410 bases of DNA from a phage. The stretch lies in the sequence record MZ617139.1. The stretch is one strand, 5' to 3'. The notes beneath the pieces are model-generated. The model was not told where the DNA came from and did not search any database. It saw only the letters and a program-made list of their open reading frames with translations. Position numbers and translations under genes: made by a program. Shown here one piece after another: positions 1-410 of the stretch. The stretch's first letter is position 1. The number at the start of each line of letters is the position of its first letter.

Positions 1-7
1 ACAGTGA

Positions 8-410
8 TACATTGATGGTCTGCTGACTGCCGATGTGATGATTTTCGACATTGAAGACGCGATGAACCACTATGACGTGGCTGGCGAGTACTCCAACCAG
101 TTGGGTGAGGCTCTGGCTATCGCTGCTGATGGTGCGGTTCTGGCTGAAATGGCTCTCCTGTGTAACCTCCCGGCTGCATCCAACGAGAACATTGCCGGTC
201 TGGGCACTGCGTCAGTACTTGAAGTTGGTACTAAAACAGACCTGAACACTCCGGCTAAGCTGGGTGAAGCAATCATCGGTCAACTGACCATTGCTCGTGC
301 GAAGCTGACCTCCAACTACGTTCCTGCTGGCGACCGTTACTTCTACACCACGCCGGACAACTACTCTGCAATCCTAGCGGCTCTGATGCCCAACGCCGCC
401 AACTACGCGA
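8..410 (+). CDS. 10: Major capsid protein, T7-like (gene 10A family), internal fragment. The 3' end runs off the window; the 5' side is closed by an in-frame TGA at 5-7, so the upstream part of the gene is out of frame or out of window.
   Basis: Frame 2 is open for 134 codons (8..409) with no stop. The translation aligns along its whole length with my recollection of T7 gp10A: identical blocks IDGLLTADV, DIEDAMNHYDV, QLGE, AADGAVLAE, NENI, GLGTA, NYVPA and YSAILAALMPNAANYA, with conservative changes between them. Codon usage is heavily biased: Asn 10/10 AAC, Arg 2/2 CGT, Leu 11/16 CTG, Tyr 7/8 TAC, Gly 7/10 GGT, Ala 12/25 GCT. The other two plus-strand frames are full of stops. Homology is from memory, not a database search. 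Confidence 0.85.

Follow-up and report, generated by a model that had tools for sequence, protein, structure and literature searches.

The question raised by record MZ617139.1 is whether the broken capsid reading frame at its 5′ edge belongs to a phage genome or only to the record that describes it. The window, by which we mean the whole stretch of DNA analysed here, is the complete 410-base source, and its capsid frame (frame 2) is open from 11 to 409. At the 5′ edge, frame 2 reads Q-stop-Y-I-D-G-L-L, with a TGA at 5-7, and frame 1 reads T-V-I-H-stop. Translation thus reproduces what the first-pass annotation had described, namely an in-frame TGA at 5-7, a change of frame near position 10, and T-V-I homology in the other frame upstream. 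We compared the window with related capsid genes, including 80 related loci from viral contigs that were aligned at the break site (referred to below as the relatives), and with the CODEHOP primers T7-fw and T7-rev for the T7-like major capsid protein (MCP; Born et al. 2019, Arch Virol 164:819, Table 2; PMC6394723). These comparisons divide the window into the following features:

1..1, plus strand: last base of the forward primer T7-fw; the other 30 primer bases are not in the record.
2..10, plus strand: three lesions, identified by alignment to relatives, in the nine bases directly after the forward primer.
11..383, plus strand: part of the capsid gene (gp10A homologue, Kayfunavirus), template-derived, in frame 2 and covering residues 94-217 of 349 aa.
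384..409, minus strand: primer T7-rev, matched as an IUPAC pattern with 0 mismatches (0/200 shuffles match).
410..410, plus strand: extra A past the reverse primer, which stops at 409; 80/80 relatives have a G here.

The identity of the gene is clear from its closest matches. A megablast search against 50,697 phage records returned 225 that match the window, headed by the Kayfunavirus phages AN24P4, PhiNW-B1, Baskent_phicoli_1, JSS1 and PE3-1, which share 96-97.5% nucleotide identity with it across window positions 3-405. In these phages the matched gene is called major capsid or head protein and is flanked by a scaffold gene and by tail tubular genes. At the amino acid level, the internal part of the window is 100% identical to AN24P4 and 99.2% identical to PE3-1 and JSS1, so that the initial assignment to a T7-like capsid gene holds at both the nucleotide and the protein level. 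Two further expectations taken from T7 were also correct: that the protein should extend some 90 residues further towards the N terminus (in PE3-1, the Ile that opens IDGLL is residue 94), and that K-V-I-T should precede IDGLL, as K-V-I-T-I-D-G-L-L is found in 24/80 relatives, with conservative variants in the others.

Outside its first 10 bases, the capsid gene is under strong purifying selection: across the 373 internal bases (11-383) there are five nucleotide differences from AN24P4, all of them at synonymous third positions, and no indels, leaving the encoded residues unchanged. Against this background the two ends of the window stand apart. Compared with gp10A of AN24P4, PE3-1, JSS1 and Baskent_phicoli_1, the window lacks two bases and carries one substitution within 2-10, and it alone has the primer-derived sequence at 384-409 followed by the extra A at 410. 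The shortfall is also visible in the database search, in which the best matches set 403 bases of the query against 405 of the record, making the window 2 bases short.

Some public records describe the capsid gene oddly (H79, OR786095.1; H56, OR594184.1; H48, PV485104.1). In one record the gene is labelled “similar to tail protein”, and “minor capsid protein” is the label in several. The record of Staphylococcus phage MBBL139 (host S. aureus) contains a Kayfunavirus-type capsid gene with 96.8% amino acid identity to the window. Such odd public annotations are probably due to mislabelling or contamination.

Alignment with four Kayfunavirus genomes resolves the break base by base, with GAG AAA GTG ATT ACC ATT GAT GGT in the genomes set against ACA GTG AT- -AC ATT GAT GGT in the window. 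The first lesion is an A>C substitution at window position 2. In the second, the TT doublet of the Ile codon ATT is one T short (after position 7 or 8), and in the third, the CC doublet of the Thr codon ACC is one C short (at position 9 or 10). Jointly they produce the in-frame TGA at 5-7 and a net frame change of -2, and both of the missing bases come from two-base runs. When all pairs of deletions are enumerated, the T-plus-C pair alone gives the observed string with one mismatch, and none of the contiguous 2-nt deletions, also fully enumerated, reproduces it, at least 2 mismatches being left each time. The net loss of 2 nt proposed in the first-pass annotation is therefore confirmed by the alignment with four relatives, while its placement as a single 2-nt deletion inside a Thr codon has to be replaced by two separate 1-nt losses, of an Ile T and a Thr C, accompanied by the A>C change. 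The comparison with close relatives that had been suggested as a check at this codon gives ATT ACC in the relatives and AT- -AC in the window.

The relatives show what this site looks like elsewhere. All 80 of them are in frame at the break site, and although their nucleotides vary, the peptide is kept as H-T-E-K-[VT]-I-[TN]-I-D-G-L-L or a close variant. Exact-match scans for the broken 24-mer junction, GTGATACATTGATGGTCTGCTGAC, came back empty for viral, metagenome and genome contigs alike; viral contigs contain the intact 26-mer junction 10 times. Two features that would mark a pseudogene can be considered here. Nonsynonymous changes and indels are not spread through the gene, the internal part having synonymous differences only and being free of indels, and the break is not reproduced in independent data, with 0 broken junctions and 10 intact ones in viral contigs.

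The origin of the window is revealed by its ends. The T7-fw site lies at locus 1469-1499 in four relatives, where it is followed by AAGTGATTACC, and window position 1 aligns to locus 1499, which is the 3′ end of T7-fw. At the other end, five third-codon positions (391, 397, 400, 406 and 409) and the final base (G>A at 410) set the terminal 28 bases apart from the closest relatives. The window's terminal 28-mer occurs in 0/80 relatives, the best of which match it at 24/28 positions, and the 23-mer core of the 3′ end has no match in viral contigs. Such a cluster of synonymous differences, in a combination not encountered in nature, led us to suspect a primer at the 3′ end. T7-rev matches exactly, and the relatives have 4 mismatches to it precisely where the window departs from them. 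Positions 384-409 are primer sequence with the CODEHOP clamp, not phage sequence. Two other accounts of the 3′ end can be set aside in view of the primer match: that the unmatched 23-mer came from an unsampled lineage, and that the synonymous cluster reflected a recombination mosaic.

The last base has an equally simple origin. Taq adds a non-templated A to the terminal 3′ end, and base 410 is such an A, read as run-off where the amplicon ends. The enzyme used for PCR in the primer study was KAPA Taq (PMC6394723). The length of the record agrees with this structure, as the predicted product is 441 bp, and subtracting the 30 absent primer bases and the 2 missing bases and then adding the A gives 410. 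The exact T7-rev match, the end of T7-fw at position 1 and the fit in length together identify the record as a forward read that extends from the primer end to run-off. The window is thus a PCR amplicon of a Kayfunavirus major capsid gene made with T7-fw and T7-rev: it contains the complete reverse primer, it has the primer's clamp rather than template sequence, and at its 5′ side it abuts the forward primer and has the expected length.

With the structure of the record established, the position of the lesions becomes informative. Three of them crowd into the nine post-primer bases, compared with five substitutions and no indels in the 373 bases that follow, and this concentration argues for an artefact; at the internal-difference rate, at least three lesions in 10 nt would be expected with P = 2.7e-4. 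Sanger traces are worst resolved just past the sequencing primer, and the collapse of doublets to a single call is typical there. We consider that the broken frame is a base-calling error in the first bases of a forward Sanger read and not a real mutation, and assign this reading a probability of roughly 0.9; we infer both the role of base calling and the use of Sanger sequencing with the forward primer. Under this reading, a PCR product from a plaque-forming Kayfunavirus coliphage would have been sequenced directly in the forward direction, and the read would have run from the 3′ end of T7-fw through 373 template bases into the incorporated T7-rev (384-409) and the Taq A (410). At its start, the TT and CC doublets would each have been called as a single base and one A would have been called as C, and these miscalls would have shifted the frame by -2 and created the spurious TGA. 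The phage gene itself would be intact, reading GAG AAA GTG ATT ACC ATT GAT GGT in place of GTGATACATTGAT.

An intact gene is also what the source of the template would lead one to expect, since a template taken from a plaque needs a working capsid gene; T7-like phages have a single copy of the major capsid gene and cannot do without it. The templates in the primer study were single plaques (PMC6394723). Among the four explanations originally offered for the break, a sequencing error is the one that the evidence favours; it weighs against a frameshift that truly inactivates the gene (as in a prophage remnant), against deliberate editing and against an insertion junction. Several other technical sources of error were considered and rejected. 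An oligonucleotide synthesis (n-1) error does not apply to lesions at 2-10, which are outside the primer. Taq misincorporation is disfavoured because direct sequencing gives a population consensus, in which three errors in nine bases are implausible. An error at the tip of a de Bruijn contig is excluded by the primer-bounded structure, which is that of an amplicon and involves no assembly.

The alternative that comes closest to the base-calling reading is that the break was made by hand, when the depositor merged two reads imperfectly or lost bases in cutting off the forward primer. The first base of the window is indeed the last of the forward primer, with the reverse primer left untrimmed, which looks like one-sided manual trimming. 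Calls are seldom usable right from the first post-primer base, so this end may have been edited or trimmed by the depositor. As the cause of the lesions, however, we regard hand-editing as unlikely: trimming takes terminal bases and would not remove single internal bases from two doublets, nor would it change an A to a C. It would equally be an artefact.

The T7-MCP amplicon of Born et al. (e.g. from phage L3, MK163344) shares with the window the exact T7-rev sequence plus A and the start at the 3′ end of T7-fw; the window's length fits the 441-bp product of that study, and its template is an Escherichia coli Kayfunavirus, the genus to which LM33_P1 belongs. For the partial MCP of Escherichia phage L3, LM33_P1 was reported as the closest relative, with 100% amino acid identity (PMC6394723). 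Comparing window positions 11-409 with LM33_P1 (LT594300; 1116-2165), we find that 4/133 residues differ (I/L, D/N, K/T, A/T), an identity of 97%; the published figure may be a loose one, or the window may have been amplified with the same primers from another isolate. In either case the conclusion on the break stays as it is. A literature search found one other published user of T7-fw and T7-rev, whose products were left unsequenced. L3 was the sole isolate in the primer study that could not be propagated to high titre, and for this reason it was left out of electron microscopy and PFGE (PMC6394723). A doubter might take this as a hint of a real defect, but the poor propagation probably has nothing to do with the sequence artefact.

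A genuine inactivating frameshift in a defective phage genome, either packaged in a particle complemented by wild-type co-infection or itself the cause of the isolate's poor propagation, would have two observations on its side: the break does stand in the record, and isolate L3, if it was the source of the window, failed to reach high titre (PMC6394723). We nevertheless hold it to be very improbable. The three lesions adjoin the primer within nine bases and the other 373 contain none of the kind (P = 2.7e-4, as above), every internal difference is synonymous, and the broken junction has no match in viral, metagenome or genome contigs. If its sole major capsid gene were frameshifted at codon 92-93, a T7-like phage could not plaque, and with an essential, single-copy gene and a plaque as template, the majority genotype, which is what direct sequencing of a PCR product shows, cannot be capsid-null. 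A version in which the 2-base loss is real in most genomes, and the phage survives through a minority of intact helpers or through low-level ribosomal correction of the frame, deserves still less credence; if it were true, a real 2-base loss in the stock would account for the failure to reach high titre.

The break might also be thought to mark the junction of an insertion or of unrelated sequence, such as a mobile element, the boundary of an intron or homing endonuclease gene, or a chimeric amplicon. At first sight the capsid-frame homology seems to end at 11, and ungapped, bases 1-10 agree with the expected sequence at just 3/10 positions. With two 1-nt gaps, however, 9/10 bases match the capsid gene, and a fit to the expected 12-mer that takes two deletions and no more than one mismatch arises in random 10-mers at a frequency of 5e-4. 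Bases 1-10 are thus true homologues of the capsid sequence, and the break, real as it is in the record, is no junction with foreign DNA. Moreover, the forward primer site that ends at position 1 is part of the capsid gene, so that the sequence upstream is also capsid gene. A junction is effectively excluded here.

The T7 gene 10A/10B programmed -1 frameshift concerns the same gene family and is the sole well-known natural frame change there; it takes place at the 3′ end of 10A at a slippery site, whereas the window breaks at codon 92-93, where there is no slippery site. The annotations of PE3-1 (1232-2544) and CR44b give a -1 frameshift at the 3′ end of 10A that leads to the longer 10B, far outside the window. 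That a programmed ribosomal frameshift or other recoding restores the frame at the break is the least credible proposal of all, for although T7-like gene 10 is known for making 10B in this way, and the PE3-1 and CR44b annotations mention it, the known site is about 250 codons downstream, all 80 relatives are plainly in frame at the break site (which refutes the proposal), ACAGTGATACATTGA (bases 1-16) contains no slippery heptamer or shift-prone codon-plus-stop, and the shift needed would be +1/-2 across a stop codon.

The break, then, is present in the record but is most readily explained as a read-start artefact and not as a biological feature. Its significance is accordingly one of data hygiene, as 26 primer bases and a Taq A are still attached at the 3′ end of the record, and the base calls at the 5′ end stand uncorrected. 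For phylogeny, primer design and variant calling, only 11-383 should be kept as phage sequence; the differences at 391, 397, 400, 406, 409 and 410 are not phage sequence. Nothing is learned from the break about the biology of the phage, and the capsid gene behind the record looks intact and strongly conserved.
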